DNA of 64,000 nt from Paraspadella gotoi. Taxonomy: Eukaryota > Animalia > Chaetognatha. The notes under the pieces were generated by a model that did no database searches, was not told the DNA's origin, and saw nothing but the letters and a program-made list of their open reading frames with translations. Made by a program: the position numbers and the translations under genes. Location: assembly GCA_051294375.1 (NCBI GenBank), contig CM119270.1, positions 13,867,316 through 13,931,315 on the forward strand. The letters are read 5' to 3'. Positions 43,301 through 58,400 of this stretch are shown piece by piece. Each line of letters starts with the position of its first letter. The stretch's first letter is position 1.

Positions 43301-44434
43301 AGTGAAGTGAAGGGGGGGATGGAGGGGAAAACAATTTAAAAAGATATAAAGGTTTGATATCACAATTGATTGCGTTAGTAAATCACACATTCTTACTTGT
43401 CTCCGTTTCCAGCAAAGAGCAGGCGGGTGGCCCCTGAAAGTCCCTGCAAATCACCCCCTGCCAACTGGTTCGTCAACTGAAGAATCTCTTGTGCTCCTTG
43501 CGCCGCCATCATCCGGTATCCAGCGTTTCTTTGTCGAAAAGAAAAACGAAAATACATTTGAAAAGTACAAATTGAGATTAAATTTCTCAATCTCATTTAC
43601 ATATTGCAGTATTAAATATAAATGTGTCCATTTTCATTTTGGATTTTAATATTAGTTCTGTTTTACGGTTATCCAGTAGATAAATATAGTCTTTAGACTT
43701 TAGCAATGTTAATGATTAACAGGAGTTATAATTATATTTTAACTAATTAATTAATAATAATACTTGGACATTTTAGAGTTAACTTGCTCATGTCATATCA
43801 TACCGTTCTAGTTTTTTAGCCAAAAATCACCTGTGACTAGTAGCTGATCCACCGGCGCTGACGGTCCCGAGAATGTTACCGACGATCCCACCGGTGACGC
43901 GGCCGCCGATTCCACCTCGTCGCGACGACCCGAACATCGACGACGAAGAGGAATGTTGACCTGCGAGGGAAGAGAAAGGAATACATTTGATGTATTTGAT
44001 TATTTGATTAAAAGATAAAAACAAATTTCGTGTACTACTAACACAGCTATTCGAATATAGGGAGTCGTCTTTTCATACAATTGAAACATTCTTTGAAATA
44101 TTTTCCACTTCATTGATAGGGAAGCCAGGTACTCTGGGAGTGAATAAACGAGACTGTGAAAGAGTCTTGATTGAAAACTTGCAGGGACCTGCTATGTCAT
44201 TATCTTGTAAGAGTGATGGAGGCCTTAAACCACCAAAGCCTGTCCAAAGTCAGGGGCAAGATAGCTTATTTATTAAATGAATGGATAATTTTTATATTGG
44301 TTGTACCAATTTCATAGAATTAAATACGAATTTTAAATTCATTTCACAATCTCTATCCCTAAAACTGAAACACTCCTCACCTCTGACTACTATTCTTTCC
44401 CTCAATTCTTTGTTGGCTACTTTCTACTTTTTCT

Positions 44435-44486
<52 letters not shown>

Positions 44487-46372
44487 ATTATTATTATCCA
44501 AATTCAAAAATTGTCAAATCGCGCTGAAGAAGGTTCGAAAACAAGAACCGAAACATGTCAAACGATATAATTAAATAATCGTTGTATTAACTAAATCAAA
44601 ATAACTCTGTTACTTTGTCGCAAGAATTTTAAATAAAATTTTGTCTTGGTTTTAATTTTCCAAAGTATAATATTTTATTCTACGTTGTCTGCCTTATTCA
44701 AAGTAAGAATCGTCTCCCCTTCTACTCTTCTAACCGGCCAAGTGGGAATCGGCCCGACGCATGAGCAAGGGATGGGTGGCCAAGACAGCCTGGGGTGGGA
44801 TAGGGGGAACGGTGGCGGCGGCGGACTCGCCCCCTACGCCTCCATCCTCGCCGCCCGTGTTGTTGATGGTGATGGGCACGGCCTGGTATGTGCGCATGGT
44901 GCCTGAAGGAAAGGGAGGAGGAAAAGAGATGAGATTTGTTTTCATAAGAAAGAAATCTCTGCGTGGAACTGGTCGACAGACTGACCGGTTCCGGTGCCGA
45001 ACATGTCCTCCAAATGAATAAAGAGGTCGTCGTCGACGATGGCGCTTCCGACTTGATGACGAACGAATCCTCCGAGATCGAACTGCATGCCTCCGCTCTC
45101 TGAACAAGTTCAACGGAATGGATGAGTAAGTGAAACTAACTTCTCCCCCCCCCTAAAACCTAAAAACTCACCGTCGTAGTCGTACTCGTAGTCGTATTCG
45201 TAGGATCCGTCGTCTTCGCCGTCGTCGTCTTCGTCCTCGTTTTCTTCCTCTTCCTCGCCCTCTTGAGCGTCGTCCACATTGGCCACTTCCTCGTCAAAGG
45301 CGCCGTGGTCTTCTTCGTCGTCCTCATCGTCGTCTTCGTCATCGTCATCCGACGCGGAGGAACCCGAGTCTCCGTCTCCGTTTTCTGAGGACGAGGAAGG
45401 CCAAAATGATTAGTTCCGTTTTAGCGATTGAATAATTTAATTTAATATATTATTTATGAATTTATAAATAATTTAATCGTCTAAAGGTTTAATTAGTATG
45501 CCTCTCAGCATATAATATAGACCATTCAATTTCAAAAGAACAAAAGACAATTGTTACACAGTATTCTACGAGCTTGACAAAACAAAAAAAAAACCTCGAA
45601 AAATAAGGTAAATTGTAAAACTGTAAAACTTCGTTTCGTCTGAAATAGCTGAAATAAACGAATCACACTAGCTGCGGTCGTATCTTATCACTGAGTCGGG
45701 AGATGAGCGGCTGCGACGTTAGATCCTCTCGATCGAGTTGAGGGGGAAAGGGGCCAGGAGGAAGAGGGAAAGGGAAAAATGGAGACGCCTGGATTTTAAC
45801 GAACTTCAGAGGATACAATGAACGATCGACTCAGACGACCAAGGTCAGTCTCTTTTTCGACGGAGACCGAACCCTTTTGAAATTAAAGTCGAAAGCAGAG
45901 TTTGGCGAACGAGGCAGACTCTTTCAACTCTCATCCTGTTAAATCGAGATTGAGGCAATGTCAGCGCTAAAAAAATGTAAATAATTGATTGAAATGACGA
46001 CATTGAGTATTAAAAGTTAAGTTATGGTTAAAAGTAGGCGAGAAACCCGGTAATCCCAATCGGTGTTTAACGGATAAATGGAAGGGATGGGGTTGGGGTT
46101 CATGGAGACAAGAGATTGAGACAATGTAACAATGAGAGATATAAGCGATTCATTGAGTGGTAACTCTGAAGAAAAAATTGAGCTAAAATCTGGAGACTGA
46201 TTGGTGATGAAGAAACAGGTGATTGGTAAAAAATTAGTGTAGTAGAGATGATAAGTGACAGGTGAGTGGAAGTTGGAGATGGGTTCTCGGTAGGAGCACA
46301 CTGAGGTTATGATTGCAGATAGGGAGACTTATCGTCGAAACTTGGATCGAGAGAAGGGATCGAAGCTGAAGC

Positions 46373-46411
<39 letters not shown>

Positions 46412-49400
46412 TAATCAGCCGGCGTGGAAAAAGAACGTGCGCAACATAGGCCATCCAAAGGGATCGACTAAATCGGACCAAGCACATTCACTTTAAAAAT
46501 ACAAGTATTACATTTTTCGAAATCTCAACAAAATAAATAACAAAGAGCAAACGTAGGCATAATTTTGCTATTTAGGATGTATAAACCAGGTAAGTTTTCA
46601 ATATAATTCTAAGCAACTATATTGAAAATCTGAATGAAATATTACAGAATTTCTTTTCACTTGCAGATATCGACTCGCTGGCTGTTGAGAACGATCGCGA
46701 AGCCTTCGCTCAGACATTCATCGCTGGCGAAATTTAATCGATCCCTCCCGCGGAAAACGCGCAAATGAGGAGAGGTTGGGTTACTGAGAAGATCCTTGGG
46801 GCTTCGAAAGTGCGTATCCGTTTGGAAAAAAAAATCCTTGATCATAGATAACTCATATTTTAGATTTTAATATAATTAGAATAAAATGAACGAAGGATTA
46901 TTCGCGACCATTCCATTTTGTGTTCAGACGTCCGCGAAGAGAAATGATTTGAAACGTTAGTTGATGAACATTTAAGAAAAACAATGTCTCTCCGGCGCGT
47001 CTAAGAAACCACTGTCTTTTCAACTCGTCTCTTTCAAACCTGTTAACGATCTCTTTTCAAAACGATAAGAATAAACACAAACCACATAAAAAATTCAACA
47101 AACAAAACTCGTTAAAAATATTTTTCTCGCCCTCACAATAAGACAATACAAAAGAAATTCAACGGAAACCCGTCCCAAAATGGCGTGCTCCCGTGAAAGT
47201 CAGGAGAAGGACACGAAATTGGAAAGTGAAATCAAGGAAGAATTTTTGTCGTGCAAAATCTGCTACGAACCTTTCACGAGCCCCAAATCGCTCTCTTGTC
47301 TTCACACCTTTTGCGAAAAATGCTTGGAGGCGCATCTGTCAACCATCAGAACATATAAGTATATGCATGGGGTTTGACGTTCATAAGGGGGTGCAAGGAT
47401 TCGAAACCACGAAAAATTTTGCTGAAACTGCTGTTGCTATAAACTAAAAATATAGTCTAGGTTTTAGTTAATGCCGTGTGTGCTTTTCAATTGTTGGGGG
47501 GAAAAAACCATACCGATAAAGCACGGAGTGAATTTTGCCATTTTATTTCTCATCAACAAATTTTAATTAACCTCATCAACCTAGAAATAAAATAAAAACT
47601 TAACGCTGCCAACCCATACCACCTTGTCTGCACCTAGGTACTCGGACCATAGGGAGTTCCCATGCCCCATGTGCAGGAAGCGGACAACGCTTCCCTCAGG
47701 AGGCGTCCGCGCACTGCCCGACAACTTCCTCGTCAGCTCTCTCAACGAGCTAGTTTCTCGCCAACGCGTCACCAAACTTCCTTTCTGCGAAGTCTGCAAA
47801 CTCGTCAACAAAAAAGTCCAAGAGGCAAGTTTTTGTAGCTGAATTATCTGTATAAACCATAAGTTGAGATCATGATTAAACTTTAAATTGTATTTTATAG
47901 ATAACGTGTCTGATATTAAGTTTATATTTAAATTCCAAGGCTAAAGCGAAATGTGTCGAATGCAACAAACTTATGTGCAAGCCTTGCGTGGACAAACATG
48001 CAAAAACAAAAATAACGGCTAGCCACAATATGTTTGATATCGACATTGAAAAGGACATTGGATGCAAAGTACACCCGGAAGAAATGGTGAAGTATTTCTG
48101 CGAAAACTGTGAGACGTGTATATGTGTGCTCTGCACATTCCAAGAGCACGCCGATCACGATTTACTAAGTTTTCAAGAAGGAGTCACAAAGTACAGAGGA
48201 GATATGTACCGTCTCTTGAACAAATGTAAAAGCATGATTCACGGATACACTAAAATATCTGACGTGCTTCAGAAAACTGATGAAGTTATAAAGACGACGG
48301 AGAAGGAGATAAAAGATACATCTCACGCTTTTGTCGCTGCAATTCGTGCCAAAGAAAAACAGATGATAGACGAGTTACATAACGTATATGGGCAAGACGT
48401 TCTCGACTTTATTGCGAAGCGAGCGGACTTTGACATTACCCTTAACAATCTGGCAAGCACAACCCGCTTGGCTGACGTCATTATGAAAGGATCACCGATG
48501 GAGATGCTGCTCTTGAAAAAGGATGTCCAAGACAAATTGGAAGATCTTGCAGACTTATGTCCTCCGAGCTTGCCAGATAAAATCAACAAAAAAGTTATGT
48601 TCATTCAGGGATCAGTTCTGCTTGGATCCCTTGAATCTGGAGATGCATTAAAATCACTCGGTATTAGTGCATTTACAGAAAAGAGGCCACGGAATAGAGA
48701 GGTGCAGACTGACCCAATGTGGATCCACGATCTCACTGATGAAGATGGAGAACCTGTGGCCCCTTCCATAAAGATAGAGTACGTAGAGCGATATCAGGAA
48801 GAATCTCAAACTGATCCAATAGAGACGAGGCATATGTGGTCTCAAACCAAAGACGACTTGGAAATGGACGATGTCTGGTGCCAGACAGGTGAGGATGATT
48901 ATGGATTTTTTGATGATGAGGCATTATGGTATTACAATGAGAAAGCATGGTACCAAAAGGATTTGGAGGATGAAACTGTTCAAACTGACCCAGTTGATAT
49001 AATGAGTGAAATAATACATAAATTGGATTATGATATAGAATTTAGGAAAAATTTATTAAATTCAAAATTGAATTTTTTCAAACCTAAGATGGTGGACACA
49101 GCAACTCAGTTGACTCCAGAAAAAATTAAAACTCATGCAAGAGCTGTACAAGCTACAATTATTGGACAGTCAACAGGAAAAATAGAAACAAAGAAACATC
49201 AGATGATACAAACTCAACTAATTGGAGATGCGTTAGGAACAAAAGGAAAAGAGTTTAACACTCAATCAGCGCAATGCGACAAAACTATTTTGAAAGATTC
49301 AGGAGTTCAAGTTATTGAAGTTGGGGATCCATTAGGAACAAAAAGGGAATTTAAGGACGCGTCAGTTCAAATTGAAGGGGATCCACAAGAAAAAGATTCC

Positions 49401-52400
49401 AAAGAAACTGAAAAAAGGGCAACAGTCGCACCTCAAAAAGGTGAGAAAGCTGCTCCAATCAAAATTAATGAAGAAATAAAAACGCAAACTGTCACGGACA
49501 AACGGCAGGAAACAAAAATCAAACCCAAAAAACAGCCGAATCCTTTATCCAGTGATATTGACAAAAGTGAACGGCAAGAGCTTCAGAGCGTCGCGGGTGA
49601 GAATAAAAAAACAATCAAAGCTATTGAAACAGTTCAAAAAGATAAAAAAACAGATGTAAAAAACACAAACCAGATTTCAAGAAAAACTGAAACTAGTAAA
49701 GATTTGAAAGCCACAAAACAAGAAATGATGCAAGACACTAGCAAAGTATCTAACCAGGCAATCGTGACTGGAGTTACTGATGAGGAAGCCCGAGAAACAC
49801 TTCAAGAAAATAACAGCAAGAAGACAAATTCCGAAAAAAATTTGGAAAAATCAGTAATAGCGAAAAAGAAAGACATGGCACTAAACCCAGAAACGATTTT
49901 AATGGATGAGGCGGAAAAGTTGCCACATTTCGAAAATTCACAATCAACTGACATGGTGGCCCCAAGCATAGGTCACGCAATTAAAGTACCCTCTCAAACG
50001 CCACAAGCTCGTCTTGCAAGCCCTTATGGACAAATCAGTATTCCACCTGGCACCATAATACACAAAGTTCAAAGTCTGCCACCCGGGGCAGTTCCAATCG
50101 ACCCATCTATGGTTCCGCCTGGTATGATTTCCATGCACGCTGCAACAAATTTAAATTTACAAAAGAAACTTCAAAAACCTGAAATTGTGCAACAAGCTCA
50201 GGGCAGGAGTAGAACATTATCAGAGGACTCAGGTGAGAATATACCTAAAAATTCGGTAACAATAAAAGAACATATATTCACTTTGATTTCGTTGATACTA
50301 CTGCGTCAGTCGTTTTACCTACAGATCGAATTCAATGAGAAAATGAAGAGAAAATAATTATCCGATTTAACGAAAAAAAAAAGAAATCAGAAAAATTTGT
50401 TCAAGATTTTAAATTCATTTTCTACATTGCATCGATCTGCATGAAACCAAAAAACTAACAGAGTGAAGAAAGATAACTAACAATGCCATCAAAAAATAGA
50501 AAACACACAAATAACCCTTAATTATAAACCTACTAACAGAATGCTCTTTATTTACTATATATTTTCACTGGTGCCAACCTTTGAAAATGTAAAATAAGCA
50601 TGTAAATCAGCCATTTAACAATTACACTAAATTAAAAAAAAAGTTAAAATCCAAATTTTCTAGTTACTAATTAAAAAGTAAATATAACGAAGCAAGTCGT
50701 AACAGAGAAAAAAAAGTTGAGTAAGATTAAAGTTGACAAAATAATTCAATCATAAGAATTACGACAAAAAAACAAAAACAGGTGGAACATCCTATCAGGG
50801 TAATAAACACTTCGAAAAAAATTCCTAACAACCTTTAACTTATTGTCTATAAAAACTAATTCATCTACATCTGTATATGTTAAAAAAATTCCGCAAAATC
50901 ACAAAACTCTCACGAAGTGTTTTTATTCTGTGTAGGCGGTCTCCAAAGTTTCAATGCTTCAAATGTGGAAACAGAAGATCTGGCTTCCCAAATGGTAAAA
51001 ACGAAATATAAGCCAAGCACTGAAACCTCGTCATTAACAGTTAATCTCTCCGTCCCACAAAGTCAATTACAAAACAGCATACGAATGGAGAGTACAACCT
51101 CGAAATCTACCATTGGTCATCACAGAGCTCGCAAAAGATTACAGCGTTCAAATACAGACCAAATAGTACAGCGATCAAATACAGAGCAAAGATTAATGAC
51201 AGCACCATTAGCCCATTCTGAATTTGAGGATGGCACTAATCTTGTTGAAGCTCTCACACTAACGGAGTTCCCCAGAAAAAAATCTTCCGTTCAACATCCT
51301 CAAACTATGAAAACAAAGCCGCCAAATGCCTCCCAAACAAAAAAGCTCAAAAAGAACTCTCGATCGTCATCTTGCGCCGCCCAATAACAAGTTCTCTAGA
51401 AATAACATTAATTTGAACGTTTTTACATTTTAATCTTTTTTTTAATTTTTGTTAGTTCGACCAATAAGTAGGATTAGTTACCAACTATTTTTAAAAATCT
51501 ATGAAATTATCTGTTAAAAATTAAAAAAGAAAACTAACATGTCTTCCTTTCACTGCGTACGAGTTTAAAAACTATCAAATAAAGTTAAACTTTAATCTCC
51601 ACGATAAATAAACCAGCAGCGAACTAACCACTAATGCTTGGTGAACATTTGCCTTAACTAACTTTTAGTTATCATTCGGCGGCCAGACCTAAATTCTAAA
51701 AAAAAATTTCATAAAATCCACAGGTGACGAAATGTTCGTTCAAAGACTGAGGCCATTTTCAGTTACGTCCGATTCAGACACTGATGAAGATTCCGACTCA
51801 GACGATATTGAGGAACAGTTAACAACGTCGCAAAAACAATTTCACGTATCTACTACTTTGCCATCGAATTCTTTTCAGTCACGAGCCAAAAAATTAACAG
51901 CTAACGTTTTACGTACGAGATCTACAACTCCGGAAAACAAATCAGATGATAAAGGAAAGCCACCAAATTCTCAGGCAAAATCTATGACTAATGACAAGCT
52001 TAAGAAGCCATTGCAAAGGAAAAAGAGCAGTGAAGAAACAGTGAAAATGGAAAAACAAATTCAGGGAGCAACGAAAGGTGATAAAATAGAAATAATGAAA
52101 AGAGCCATGTCATCCGATCTCATACCAATTGAAGACAGCGCAAGTCGAGCAGCAAAGAAAACGGAAGCGAACCAGCCAAATGAAAACAAAAACAATTTTA
52201 GTGTTATGGACGATGGTTGGGGAATTTGAATTCGAATTTAAAATTCATGACCTTATTAATCAACTTTATTTATCAACTAGTCAAATAACAGTGGTAATTA
52301 TACTTTTTGCCATAAAATTTATCGGTAATAAAACAAAGAGAGAGCCAGAGACGGCCTTTTTATCTTACTAGTAATTACACTGGCTGATTTGTTGCTGCTT

Positions 52401-55400
52401 TGATGTCTTATACTAATTAAACTGCTTATATATTGAAACTAACACAAACCATTTATCTAATTATTAACTTTAATAAGTAACGTGTGCATGAATATTACTT
52501 TCATTGGATACAAGATATACGCAAAATAGTTTCTGTTGGCAGCTACAGATCAGTACCAACAAATTCGTTGACCACTTATAATTATCATATTTTCTCTCTG
52601 GCTCCTCTTTTTTCAGCCGGTTTAAAAACCCCAAAAGCACCTGCAAGATCCGATCAAAGAACGGTTTTACCTAAAAAGCAAATCCAAGACAAAAAAAGAC
52701 CGCCTGAAAAATTAAAAGGCGAGACAAAGTTGGATGCCCCTACTCAGACTAGCGCCATAGATGCAGCGACTGGGTCCCCGGCAACAAGCAAACAGTTTTC
52801 AGAAGCAATAAAGACCGAAATAGAATCCACAAGGAGCGAAACTGCGGCACAAGTTCCAAGTCTAAAGCAAGTTCCTCCATCACCAAAAGTGTACATTAGA
52901 AAAATTAAGGGAAAAGGCAAAGTAAAAAATCCTGAGCATTAAAGTTTGAACTTCATTCCAGAAATCCGTCTGATGTGTCCATCTTATTAGGTTTAAAACT
53001 CAAAATTTAACCTGCGATTACTTTGATAAACTTTCATTGAAGCAATTTTAAATAAAACTATGTTTGAAACTGCGATTTCTTATAAAATAAAAATTGTGTA
53101 AAGTTCAGATGAATAATACAGTTTTCATGCTCCGAATCCAAATATTTTTTTTTGTGATGATATAAACAACGGCCAACTAATATTAAACAGCTGCTTATAA
53201 CTGTGAGGAAGAATGTCCCGCAACTGAAACACCTTATGGACCTGGTGTTGATGTCCGACTGAGTTCCAGAGACAAATGTTGTCTTATATTGTAGTGTTTT
53301 TGTATCAGTAAGAAAACAAATTTTGCAACTGCACAGGTAATTTTTTTTTATTTAGCTAACTCACCCTCACAATGTGTCATTAACCACACAGACCGTGTCC
53401 AAAACTCCACTTTCACACTTGAAATTAAGACTAAACATTCTTGGTTTAAAGCAATAATTATGCCAGTGCTCTCTCTTCTGTTACTTACGTTTACACTTTA
53501 TCTTTCAATTTTAAATCAACCATGGGGCAATATTCGCCTTTCATGCGCCATTTTAATTTTAATTGTATGCACATTACGGCGTATAATTTTTTAAAGGAAT
53601 ATATTTTAAGGTTATCGGAAACGGTTTGTGTTTAATGACAACTGGGGGAGAGGGGGTACCAGGAAAAGGAAGCCTTGGCCATGAAGAATCCGATCAAACG
53701 GGGTCAAATTAGGTAAATTTACAAGAACTATGTAGTTGCCTTATCTAACAGCGTTCGTATTTATGGTGCCCCCCCTTTCCCTGCTTGGATACTGAATAGT
53801 GTTGTGTCCCCAAGAAAAAGCTTGCTAGAGGCTTAAGGATAAATATTTTAAGTGCAAAATTGAACAATTAAATGACCAAAATTCAACTCAAACATTTTCA
53901 TAATCCTGATTTATTGGTTTGAAGCTAACGTTTTTTAATAGAAAAACAAGGAAAAAAATAATTATTTAACATGCTACTAAAAAAATTTAAAATTTTCATG
54001 TATGATCACAATTGTAATTTTAAAACTGTCTATGTTCTTTCCCTATGTTTGTATGATTCAGAACAATGCGGAGATTTTTACCCTGCAACTGAAGACGCGC
54101 AAAGAAATAGAAGTTCTTCATACAGTTACATCAGTAATGTTTTTATATCTGTCGATCCTTGATATTTGTTTGCTATAAGTACATGCGCACCACCAATTTT
54201 CTATCAACAATAAAATTTTGTTCTGTGACAAGGATAAGATCTTTCGTTTGGGGCTGTGTAGTATCAATTTTATTTAAAAGTTTGTATCAATTTCGTGTTG
54301 CTCTTTATTATTCATTAAGAAAATACAACTTTTCGGCATCATTAAGAAACTAAAATGAAACTTAAAAATAATATTAAAATAATCGTAGAGAGTCTGCGAA
54401 TCCAAGGTAAAGTTTGTTCAAAGTACCGCAGGATAACAAATTTTAGCCAAATTTTAAATACAAAATACGTTGAGCTGGACGTTTTTCTGATAAACCCGTT
54501 AAAATCTGCTAAAAATTAAGACTTCTTCTGGGGGGAGAGTAAATGGGTCAAGCGGATCGCAGCATTTAAGCTCACCGTTCTGCCGGCGATCGGTGTTGTC
54601 CGTCCGCGCAATGTTTCCGGGCGTCGTGCGTCGCGCCAGGGCGTCTTCCTCTTGGTCGGATGCGTTCTGTGACGCCATCTCCGAATCGTTCCCGTCAATA
54701 GCGTCGTCCAGGTCTGTAAGCGAACGTGTCAGCGAAAGTGAGAATAATAACGAGAAGGGAAAGCGAAAATGAAAAAAAGGAAAAGCTTAATAATCTGGAG
54801 GAAAGAAGGAAACCTTTCAAAACAAGAAACTAGGAGCGAAACTCGTGCGAATCACCGAGGATTTTCGCGGATCCACCAAAAACTCTTTTGAACTCATTAA
54901 AGACTTCTAACAGAGGGATATCTTTGTTGTAAAGATATCTATAAACGTTTCCCCTTCTCATTTTTATTATTATTATGATGTGATGATCATTTGACAGGCC
55001 CTGCCGTCGCTTTGTGTGCCTCTCTCTCGTTACAGATCCACTTATTATTCAGTGGTCGACCCGGCAGCTAGGATAGAACTCCTTTCGTGGCTGGCCCTGT
55101 GGGCAATCACAGATGCGCTGGCGCGCCGTGCAGCCTCACCGCAGAATCCGCCCACTGACAAAACCAAACAACCGACGCGCCATTCCGCACGGCCTCACCT
55201 TCCTCGCGGTCGCTTCTCCTGCGGCGAAGGGGTCTTTGCCGGCCCCTTCTGCCGCCGACGCGTCTTCCTCGATTTCCAAAGAAGGTCGCCATCGATTCGG
55301 GTCCATCCGCCGCCGCGACAGCAACCGCGTCCGCCGCCGCAGCAGCTGCCGCAGCCATCGCCGATAACTCTTCTTCGCCTGGCGGGAAGACGATGCAGGA

Positions 55401-58400
55401 TAATGAAGTGAGGAGAAACGGAGGCAAGTTATTAAATTAATTTAATTCTAAGCTCGTTTTAACTTCCTTCCAGTTTCGAGCGACTCATCACCTAAAGTGA
55501 CAGAAGTGTCCATCTGCTGTTGGTCCTCGTCTTCTTCGTCGTTGTCGTCGTTCCGAGAACCTAGCATGTCCACCGTCGTCGCCTGGCTAGAAGAGGCCGT
55601 GTTTACGGAGCTTTGGGCGCTCTCTTGCGACTGGCCTTGGGTCGCAGAGGCGTCGGCGGCGGATGCAGCATCGGATTCGGCGACTGATGTCAGGGAGGGA
55701 AAAGGAGGGAAAGAGAGAATTAACAAAATATTTTTCATTTAAAATAGTAAAGAATGAACTCACCCTCGGAGTTGGAAGGCGGGTCTCCCGGAGGGCGTGG
55801 GGTTTCGGAAGCGGCCGGCTCTTCGGTCTGTCGACCTCGATGGCCGCGACGAGTACGAGGAGCTTCGCCGTTCAGACAAAACGGAATTCCCGGTTGCATG
55901 GTGATCTGAATCAATAACCGTTTATTTAGTCAAAGGAATGAGGGCATGGAAAATGGAAAAAGAAAAAAGGTAAGGTAAAGAAGGTAAGAAAAAAAAATAA
56001 AAAAATTCCAAGAATAAAAAATAAAGCAGGGACCACCTGTGGCTGATTGACGATTCTCGATAAGGTCTCCAATGGCTTGAGAGTTGCGTTGACAGTCGCC
56101 GAAATGTGCGGAGACGACAGATCTAGAGAGTAACTAACTCTCGCTAAATCGGTGATGACTCCCTGTTGCGAGGGGGTGCGGGACGAAAGATTACAGCGAA
56201 TAGTTATCGCTCAAATATGATCTCCGTACATCGGGGGGAAAATGGAGTCAACGCTCACCTTCCGGAGCATGAGACGCACGATGTTATTGAGGGGCGAAGC
56301 GAGAGAGCTCTTGAAGGGCGTCTGGGACGAATGTTGCGGCGGTGAGGGACACGACTCGATCATCGTCGACATCAGCGCCACCAACGCCTGGACCTTTTGG
56401 TGCTTGGATGATGACTCGGGGAGAGCGAGGGCACGGCCTGGAAATGCAAGTTTAAATTTAATAAAATTACAAAATTACAACACAAAGTTTAAGTTTTTAA
56501 AACTATATAATATATTTGCGAGTGTTTTCCGACTCCCTCACCAAGCGCTTGTTTAGTTTCCACGACGAGTTGCAACTGGCGTCGGGGCATGGACCGAAGC
56601 GGCGATGGCGGCGACGAGTACCCTGGCCAGCGCCGGCGCGTCCTTATCACCCGTCGTCTGACATGGAGGAAGCAATGGTCCAGCACGTAGCCAGGACGGA
56701 GCAGTCCTCGCGGGCACCGAAACCGCTCTGGTTGGGCTGTAGACGGATCGGGGTTGGTGGATGGTTAGAGAAAGAAAAAAACTGAGCCAGGGGTAAACAC
56801 CGCTTTTAATACTGACTTGATATACGTATCCCGCAATGACCGAAGCGACGCCGTGATAAGACCTCACCAATTCCGCCAGAAGGCGAAGGATGAGGATTTA
56901 GGAAGCAAGGGCTTAGTCCTAAATGAGTAAAGATTAGAAGTCTAACGTCGTTCTTAGAAATCGAGGAAGACTTTTTTCAATGGATATTTTCGTTAAAATG
57001 CTGACTTTACCAAATATGGTAACGCCCTGGGAAATATACAAGTAAAAAATAGAAGTAAAAACAACTCGATTGGCCGATCCTGTTTGCATCTGAAGGGCTC
57101 GGCATTTTTTTTTCTCTTGGACAAATAAACCATCTATTTGACATCAAACATCAGATTCAAATGGACGTGGTCCGCTCCGGATAAAATATTTTCGATGGGC
57201 AATTTCTTATATATAAAATAAACAGGGATTCTCTCACTCTCAATACAATGTCAACGGCATGTTAATAGACATATGTTGTGATTTTTAATGAAACTCAATT
57301 CAGGAATCCGGTGCATTGTCTGAAGGGCTCAAATTTTTCTTTACATTTTATTTGGTTATTTTGGCATACGAATACACATCGTTGGAAAAGTGAATAGTTC
57401 CATTTTTGGTGAAATTTTTATTTAAAGTAGTAAAAGTAACGAGGATCTATAGATCGGAATTCTACATGGAGTTTCAACGCGGGAGTCAGATGTCAAGTCT
57501 CAAATAGAATCTTCGTATGGCAAATCTTCCAAAGAAAGGGGTTGGATGTTCCGAAAATTTGGTTAAAAATTATTTTTTTTCCCGCCTATATTTATGGTGG
57601 ATTTTTTGAAACTTAAATATTTAAACAATTATTGGAGCCATCATTCTACACCCGTTGGGCCGGTTTTTAAGAATATTTAAAAAACCGTCTGGCTTGGTTT
57701 GTCAGAGCTTAGTCCTATAAAGAATCATGAGAAATAATTTTGAACCGCTAAAAAGAACATTAATAACAATCAAATCTACCGCTTCTCTGGTTAAAGTTTT
57801 TTCAACTTCATTGGCTAAGACTTCAGAGTTGCTTTCTGGCTTTTCGCCGTTTGTTCTGAAGACCTGCCGAATTCAGAAATACATACAAGAGATTAAGGCG
57901 GAGAATTATGCGTAAGTCACGACGGTTTGTTTTCACTGCACGTCGATACTATCGACCGAAAAATACACACGTACCCGACGAAGACGACGTACCCTCGTCC
58001 ATAGGGAAACTCTCCGGTTCGGAGAGCCAACGCGAAACGCCGACGGACGGAGCGTCATTGGCCGATTTTCGAGATTCGTTTGGGTCGAAGCTGCACCTGG
58101 ATTGGACAATGAACAGTTTTTCAAAAAAATTAAGAGTGGCAAAATTAAGGCTCAAACAAAGATTTATACATTTTAACATACTTTTAATGGACAGAAATTT
58201 CTAATATGGCTCATAACCCTATAATATATTTTTTTTAATTATTTATTTATAGATAGGAAAGGCCAAAAATATTTTTGAAAAATTTTAAAATTTAAGACCC
58301 TATTCAGATAGCTCATAAAAAGTTGTCTACATGAAGTATAAATCTTTTTTAAATATTCTTATGATGAAGTAAGTAAAAAATAAGAAAAACCGTCATCATA

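Follow-up and report, generated by a model that had tools for sequence, protein, structure and literature searches.

A chaetognath TRIM gene with a candidate LC8-binding motif array and alternative, predicted prenylated C-termini

TRIM ubiquitin ligases are classed by the folded, substrate-picking domain at their C-terminus, and class V members, among them PML and TRIM56, have no known domain there. TRIM2 and TRIM3, of the class VII TRIM-NHL ligases, carry a single B-box, a filamin domain and a six-bladed NHL propeller (PMC9732051, in part). Here we describe a gene of the chaetognath Paraspadella gotoi, found on the forward strand of a window of 64,000 nucleotides (nt; assembly GCA_051294375.1, contig CM119270.1, positions 13,867,316 to 13,931,315; coordinates below are window positions). 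From its sequence the product is a TRIM with RING, two B-boxes and coiled coil (RBCC), and thus a putative E3 ligase. It shares with TRIM2 and TRIM3 a RING pattern ending in CPxCR, in which the Arg following the last RING Cys aligns with their CPVCR, and the end of the coil. It differs from them in having two B-boxes, neither filamin nor NHL, a motif array predicted to be disordered, and isoforms that end in CaaX boxes. As in class V TRIMs, the RBCC region is followed by no recognisable domain; that class, however, is a grouping by absence, whereas the family described here is a clade of its own with a positive signature, the array, and with an NHL remnant in some members.

Each ingredient has precedents: TRIMs, ladders of LC8 sites and CaaX boxes switched by splicing are all known. 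A CaaX box is added or removed by alternative last exons in ZAP-L/ZAP-S, OAS1 p46 and KRAS4A/4B, as in the gene described here, but none of these is a TRIM, and the P. gotoi gene has two Cxxx types on tethers of very different length. The L2 linker of KANK1 likewise has many Q- and N-anchored motifs of mixed quality in a disordered region; cooperative loading of LC8 turns it into a rod, and the protein is cortically anchored (PMC12803091, in part). KANK1, however, is an adaptor that is not an enzyme; its linkers span 3-4 residues and its binding has been measured (PMC12803091). The P. gotoi array lies on a predicted E3 ligase, is spaced at 12-42 amino acids (aa) and is a predicted LC8 ligand. 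ASCIZ/ATMIN, FAM83D/Chica and RSP3 also have several xQT-type anchors, with D/E/P at +2, in disordered regions; there is no TRIM among the 79 binder entries of the table that lists them (PMC6607443, Table S4), and in the P. gotoi gene alternative splicing determines how many sites the protein has. A preliminary description of the locus, made from the letters alone, knew of no TRIM subclass with this architecture. The literature we covered, which included few subscription papers, agrees: it yielded neither a TRIM that bears an LC8 array or a CaaX box nor any account of the family.

The array consists of 12 motifs that share one reading frame (48690-49493), with their Q residues at positions 378, 412, 424, 437, 470, 512, 526, 546, 567, 579, 599 and 638 of the spliced protein. 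These, and a thirteenth motif in a last exon (DAPTQTS, Q codon at 52745), had been quoted in the preliminary description as LC8/DYNLL-type sites, and all 13 are present. To score them we used a regular expression in place of LC8Pred or ELM: an anchor of the form (T/V/I/S)Q(T/V/C/I) with no Pro at -4 to -2, based on residue classes among the 79 binders of Table S4 of PMC6607443. Eight of the 12 array motifs fit this rule, against 0.98 expected within aa 371-642, and none of 20,000 shuffles reached eight, so that the motifs stand well above background. Over the whole tail, 8 anchors compare with 1.91 expected (p ≤ 2e-4), and there were none in RBCC, none in the distal tail and none in each of three terminal exons; control minus-strand open reading frames of the window held 4 (T/V/I/S)QT against 4.4 expected. 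An anchor followed by D/E/P at +2 occurs in 4 of the 12 motifs (0.24 expected). The remaining four array motifs and DAPTQTS do not fit. The latter we rejected as a good LC8 site: it has Pro at -2, is absent from the matching exon of the relative P0006, and belongs to only one of four alternative last exons.

Three segments of the array can be distinguished. Motifs 1-4 (48690..48890, + strand) are common to all isoforms, and their Q is kept in 6/6 close relatives. Motifs 5-11, from EDETVQTD to KDASVQIE (48966..49376, +), are confined to long isoforms; in six of them Q is kept in 6/6 relatives and in one in 5/6. Motif 12, EEIKTQTV (49470..49493, +), has a good anchor and is species-specific, its Q being found in 2/6. 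In all, Q is thus kept in every close relative for ten motifs. The array had been described as low-complexity, which is not simply the case for its proximal part, an acidic and aromatic-rich stretch with 31 D/E and 13 F/W/Y in 103 aa. Within this stretch, W-x-Q repeats (WSQ, WCQ, WYQ; 48828-48962) are conserved, with linkers as conserved as the motifs, and the stretch may bind something besides LC8.

Conservation among distant homologues (41-49% identity, molluscs and a nemertean among those named) indicates that the array is old. At least one (T/V/I/S)QT occurs in the tail of 41/42 such proteins. Their tails hold 76 in total, against 9.6 expected, and their RBCC parts 9 against 8.3; variants anchored on N, M, G or S number 73 against 15.8 expected. 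Of these, 29 rows were aligned; they form a sister subclade and are not proven to be orthologues. Four anchor columns, mostly of TQT(D/E), (V/I)QT, T(G/M)TD-type and VNTR sequence, are occupied in 25, 24, 16 and 28 of the aligned rows. Majority identity there drops from 0.78 at the anchors to 0.32 outside them, and the linkers range widely in length. The first anchor lies 55-82 residues past the LLKK motif of the coil in 43/49 homologues. Long paralogues contain 78 anchors (28.3 expected), and 14 NHL-bearing outgroup proteins contain 1 (3.1 expected).

Individual sites resemble those of known clients: KDSGVQVI is similar to KDTGIQVD of nNOS, and KDASVQIE to QSVGVQVE of DLGAP1 (PMC6607443, Table S4), while the N-, M- and G-anchored sites of the family are similar to sites in WWC proteins, myosin Va and KANK1. 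In KANK1, weak sites such as ASRGVNTE, which is close to EEKGVNTR of this family, bind LC8 cooperatively; single peptides have no measurable affinity, yet seven LC8 dimers load two strands (PMC12803091). Weak sites in the array may count for the same reason. A complex of four LC8 chains with two copies of aa 367-477, in which a metagenome protein (locus L067) stood in for LC8, was predicted with a score of 0.45 against 0.01 for the best control; runs agreed on at least 27% of contacts, and partner pLDDT (predicted local distance difference test) was at least 34. In calibration the passing mark was reached by 51/78 solved and 2/108 mismatched pairs, but the range of 0.60 or under held only 5 of the 78 solved pairs and all 4 passing mismatches. 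The pass may also reflect solved LC8-peptide structures. The prediction offers weak support for LC8 binding. Chiefly on the conservation pattern, we consider it likely that LC8 binds at least part of the array.

The gene model was built from contigs of four public runs labelled "DNA?" or "RNA?", none of which is on record as RNA; runs X6 and X7 are apparently one data set and were not counted as independent. Coding exon 1 (47180..47358, +) contains the ATG and the first part of a C3HC4 RING (Pfam zf-RING_UBOX, E 4.7e-10), and is joined to exon 2 at 47358>47638 with GT..AG ends. Exon 2 (47638..47824, +) carries the end of the RING (CPMCR) and the start of B-box 1, and ends in a GC donor: the joint 47822>47938 has 4 shiftable letters and is equivalent to GC..AG at 47824|47940, so that intron 2 (47825-47939, +) is a GC-AG intron backed by spliced contigs. 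Exon 3 (47940..50232, +) encodes B-boxes 1 and 2, the coiled coil, the motif array and a disordered distal tail. Both coding introns are spliced in 3/4 runs and unspliced in the fourth. Two introns were also seen in the 5′ untranslated region (46590-46666 and 46810-46927, +).

Spliced contigs revealed four alternative C-termini, which are new here. An internal 5′ splice donor at 48886..48890 (+; exon end 48888) is joined to a terminal exon at 53191..53294 (+) by a junction read as 48884>53187, with GT..AG at cut +4; this joint occurs in 3/4 runs from two studies, with 26 letters on its shorter side. The resulting short isoform of 472 aa retains 4 motifs and ends in CLIL (CaaX codons 53280-53291), and its terminal exon is matched by the relative P0004 in tblastn (E 0.017). 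The other three ends follow the complete exon 3. Terminal exon A (50936..51387, +; joint 50230>50934 in 3/4 runs) gives a 1,036-aa isoform with the full array and a CAAQ end (Cxxx codons 51373-51384). Exon B (51724..52229, +; joint 50229>51721 in 1/4 runs) gives about 1,054 aa by arithmetic and ends MDDGWGI-stop, an end identical in P0001, P0002 and P0203. Exon C (52617..52942, +; joint 50228>52613 in 1/4 runs) gives a 994-aa isoform that contains DAPTQTS and has a basic tail, with a similar end in P0006, P0202 and P0205. Close relatives, at 86-87% identity over the searched region, have a match for each isoform type, so the types are conserved. Splicing of exon B to exon C was considered and rejected: contigs continue without splicing beyond the putative donor, and in relatives the protein stops at MDDGWGI. 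A probable intron in the 3′ untranslated region (53337-54061, +) starts 43 nt past the stop of the CLIL isoform.

The CLIL and CAAQ tails are predicted to be prenylated. The short isoform ends RDKCCLIL, and its relatives end KKSRCIIS, KRKNRCIIS, RKSRCVIS or KKSRCTIS, that is, in a basic patch followed by CIIS, CVIS or CTIS. The exon A isoform has a basic patch followed by CAAQ, and its relatives end SRTTSCSQQ or SCSQS; exon A is otherwise only locally similar to them (E 0.002). For both types, Cys at -4 is kept in relatives, with an upstream basic patch or a second Cys. In a yeast screen (PMC10320760, in part), CIIS and CLIL have Ras scores of 19.6 and 14.0, and CAAQ, CSQQ and CSQS have Ydj1 enrichments of 1.53, 1.49 and 1.95 compared with 1.61 for CASQ; all exceed the HM cutoff of 3. 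In the yeast reporter CAAQ, CSQQ and CSQS behave like the farnesyl-only CASQ, and Leu at X favours geranylgeranylation (PMC10320760). The reporter values for these tetrapeptides are compatible with modification by FTase or GGTase-I. Because most CXXX sequences pass this screen, conservation is the stronger evidence for the CaaX assignment. Cys at -4 was seen in 24 of the 207 family proteins, made up of 21 close-clade members, two isoforms from Tubulanus and one long paralogue. Two Tubulanus isoforms of one family member (P0031, P0244) have the cysteine-rich end SCCSCKCC, which is possibly an independent lipid-anchor signal.

In the spliced protein the RING ligands are C25, C28, C40, H42, C45, C48, C69 and C72 (Pfam E 4.7e-10). 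B-box 2 is well matched (E 1.9e-10), and B-box 1 is weak (E 2.7e-4, below cutoff; 4.5e-6 in P0004). Beyond the coiled coil there was no Pfam family above cutoff, and no match at all in the three long terminal exons scanned; filamin gave no match in the Pfam scans, in one of which the best five families were listed per protein. A structure model of the relative P0007 has helices at 198-281, 283-305 and 308-326 with pLDDT about 80, and Foldseek matches to it include the KAP1 RBCC and TRIM72. The model places RBCC largely at pLDDT 70-85 and the tail below 50, so that the motif region is modelled as unfolded. An earlier model of exon 3 from a 7-row alignment had a mean pLDDT of 34 even in RBCC and was not used for the fold. 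A Pro/Gly-rich island with three PPG triplets (about 50016-50153, aa 815-860) is 59% identical to relatives, compared with 14% for most of the distal tail that precedes it (aa 606-800).

Searching 1.84 billion representatives with a profile gave 466 proteins at E ≤ 1e-30, of which the best 150 were examined; the homologues with a named source are from molluscs and from one nemertean, one brachiopod and one annelid. Labels like "TRIM2-like", "TRIM45-like" and "TRIM56-like", which databases give to these proteins, are misleading. In a quick tree of 74 hand-picked RBCC rows out of 258, whose basal branching order is not fixed, 59 family rows split from 15 outgroup TRIMs chosen as NHL-type at a support of 97 (SH-aLRT). 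The 59 rows fall into four groups: that of P. gotoi, a short mollusc/nemertean group, a long group, mostly of 1.5-2.3 thousand aa with some shorter rows, and a small group with NHL remnants. By orthology the P. gotoi gene was not assignable to one of two mollusc paralogues from this tree. One family protein, P0034, is filed under the protist name Siedleckia and was placed among animal sequences; it is probably host contamination. The closest solved structures to the family profile are those of TRIM3 (8amr, E 3.1e-39) and TRIM2 (8ams, E 3e-29).

The absence of a known C-terminal domain, stated in the preliminary description, is borne out in P. gotoi, whose protein has no six-bladed C-terminal NHL by Pfam, but close relatives and several family members keep about 100 aa of NHL-like sequence after the array. 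Fragments of about 40-110 aa (E < 0.01) occur in 12/207 family proteins, and follow the motifs in each protein checked (P0057, P0082, P0008, P0201 and P0229). Roughly two-blade fragments in the C-terminal ~100 aa are seen in several lineages (P0201, P0229, P0008, P0057, P0082, P0098, P0092, P0107, P0110). A fifth terminal exon found in relatives is NHL-like (Atlas 0.91, 158 shared features; a lead only), and its profile matches the outgroup protein P0196 (E 6.9e-14). In the window, profiles of outgroup NHL and of the remnant matched none of 2,423 six-frame segments (best E 1.5 and 0.75), and tblastn found no remnant exon (best E 2.9, outside the core). Relatives keep this remnant, so the family likely descends from a TRIM-NHL protein; the array probably originated within the linker of that ancestor, with the propeller later shrinking or disappearing. 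The fragment might, speculatively, complete a propeller by oligomerising; some records may instead be truncated.

How might these parts work together? TRIM tails would leave together near the two-fold axis of an antiparallel dimer. The preliminary description had proposed that LC8 zips the ligase and so activates the RING by dimerisation. Within one TRIM dimer this is unlikely: TRIM coils are antiparallel and hold the RINGs at opposite ends, and RING pairing probably needs higher-order assembly (PMC7752041, in part). For the same reason, zipping by LC8 would yield a stalk, not a RING dimer. We lean, with moderate confidence, towards a stalk that positions the ligase and holds it at a distance; splicing would select how long the stalk is and which tip it has, and crowding at a membrane would bring about activation. 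Two coiled coils would pair antiparallel, as they do in TRIMs of solved structure, so that the RINGs sit at the outer ends and both tails leave centrally. LC8 is itself a two-fold clamp and would bind cooperatively, filling weak sites as well as strong ones, and several LC8 dimers would zip the two tails into the stalk, which would act as spacer and targeting device. Splicing would set the number of motifs and add tips predicted to be prenylated. The short form, with 4 motifs and a CCLIL end, would be held near the membrane by geranylgeranyl and perhaps palmitate; in the long CAAQ form the tag would be weaker, consisting of farnesyl only, and the tether would be far longer. The RINGs would be activated by crowding of dimers at a membrane site, not by pairing through LC8.

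A number of observations weigh against this proposal. The preliminary description had asked whether Q motifs are kept while linkers diverge, and this pattern, evident in the distant homologues, breaks down in close relatives: in aa 373-475 the linkers come close to the motifs in conservation (0.82 vs 0.87), and in aa 476-605 the 8-residue motifs score no higher than the linkers (0.43 vs 0.42), with only the Q held. For this reason a different partner, or some structure, may play a part. In P. gotoi the anchor rule is broken by four of the 12 motifs. Both RHMWSQTK and DDVWCQTG carry Trp at -2, which PMC6607443 lists as disfavoured in tight binders, and motif 11 is xVQK or xVKK in 6/6 relatives, with a charged +1. 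The motifs are irregularly spaced, at 12-42 aa. The joint of the short isoform has just 26 letters on its shorter side, and the yeast screen discriminates weakly among CXXX ends (PMC10320760). Nearly all CaaX ends (21 of the 24) belong to the close clade, where many sequences are near-identical.

Irregular spacing could also permit out-of-register pairing, such that LC8 cross-links tails of different TRIM dimers into clusters and its occupancy switches the RINGs on in trans. The motif evidence applies equally to this scheme, and the likely need for higher-order assembly in RING dimerisation of full-length TRIMs (PMC7752041) suits it; we nonetheless judge it unlikely, as the tails of one dimer are already tethered, which would favour in-register zipping in cis. 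The conserved proximal linkers, the recurrence of W-x-Q (WSQ, WCQ and WYQ, with WVQ in relatives), the retention in 6/6 of Q408, Q461 and Q532, which lie outside the motifs, and the weak complex score would instead fit motifs that are not mainly LC8 sites: the acidic aromatic region might self-pair as beta strands or bind another partner, or S/T-Q might be ATM/ATR-type phosphosites. This we also hold to be unlikely, given that many conserved anchors (VQT, IQT, VNT, TMT, TGT) are not S/T-Q and match LC8 client classes, that distant members keep anchors with acidic, variable linkers and no aromatic pattern, and that the tail is modelled as unfolded. Finally, LC8 might link the ligase to the dynein motor as retrograde cargo: it is one of the subunits of dynein, and Table S4 of PMC6607443 includes the dynein intermediate chains as binders. 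The two grooves of LC8, however, take two client strands and promote client dimerisation (PMC12803091). Arrays of 4-12 sites are typical of scaffolds, as opposed to cargo tags, and on the established view grooves filled by the TRIM cannot also hold an intermediate chain, making cargo transport highly improbable.

If the LC8-built stalk is correct, an old invertebrate subfamily uses an LC8-stiffened disordered tail in place of a folded substrate domain, and LC8 ladders extend from adaptors and transcription factors to E3 ligases. In its fullest form, which we offer as a doubtful but possible extension, the P. gotoi protein would represent the first recognised member of a TRIM subclass whose substrate-binding propeller is replaced by an LC8-built ruler, with prenyl-anchored stalks of different length (4 vs 11-12 sites), and with LC8 level and exon choice setting where, and how far from the membrane, ubiquitination occurs. 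The isoforms constitute a natural series, with the same RBCC, 4 or 11-12 sites, and a canonical, shunt-type or no CaaX box, suited to asking whether LC8 occupancy or membrane crowding switches on the RING. Mollusc and annelid-type members with four clean sites would be easy test cases.

The TRIM gene is nested antisense within one intron of a HUWE1-like HECT ligase gene, placing one E3 ligase gene inside another. The intron (45385..54575, - strand, 9,191 nt) is defined by a minus-strand joint at 45384>54576, CT..AC, in 3/4 runs, and is flanked by a WWE domain (E 1.6e-13) on one side and a UBM domain (E 5e-13) on the other, for which the named matches are HUWE1. Neighbouring introns listed for the HUWE1-like gene are only 72-774 nt long, compared with 9,191 nt for the one that holds the TRIM gene. 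Because contigs from 3 or 4 of the 4 runs carry single extra bases in HUWE1-like exons at 56577, 56583, 56675, 56690 and 56891, the window assembly probably contains small deletion errors at these five positions. In another part of the HUWE1-like gene, at about 44050-44320, an intron has very high summed contig depth and many loose ends, marking a multicopy repeat.

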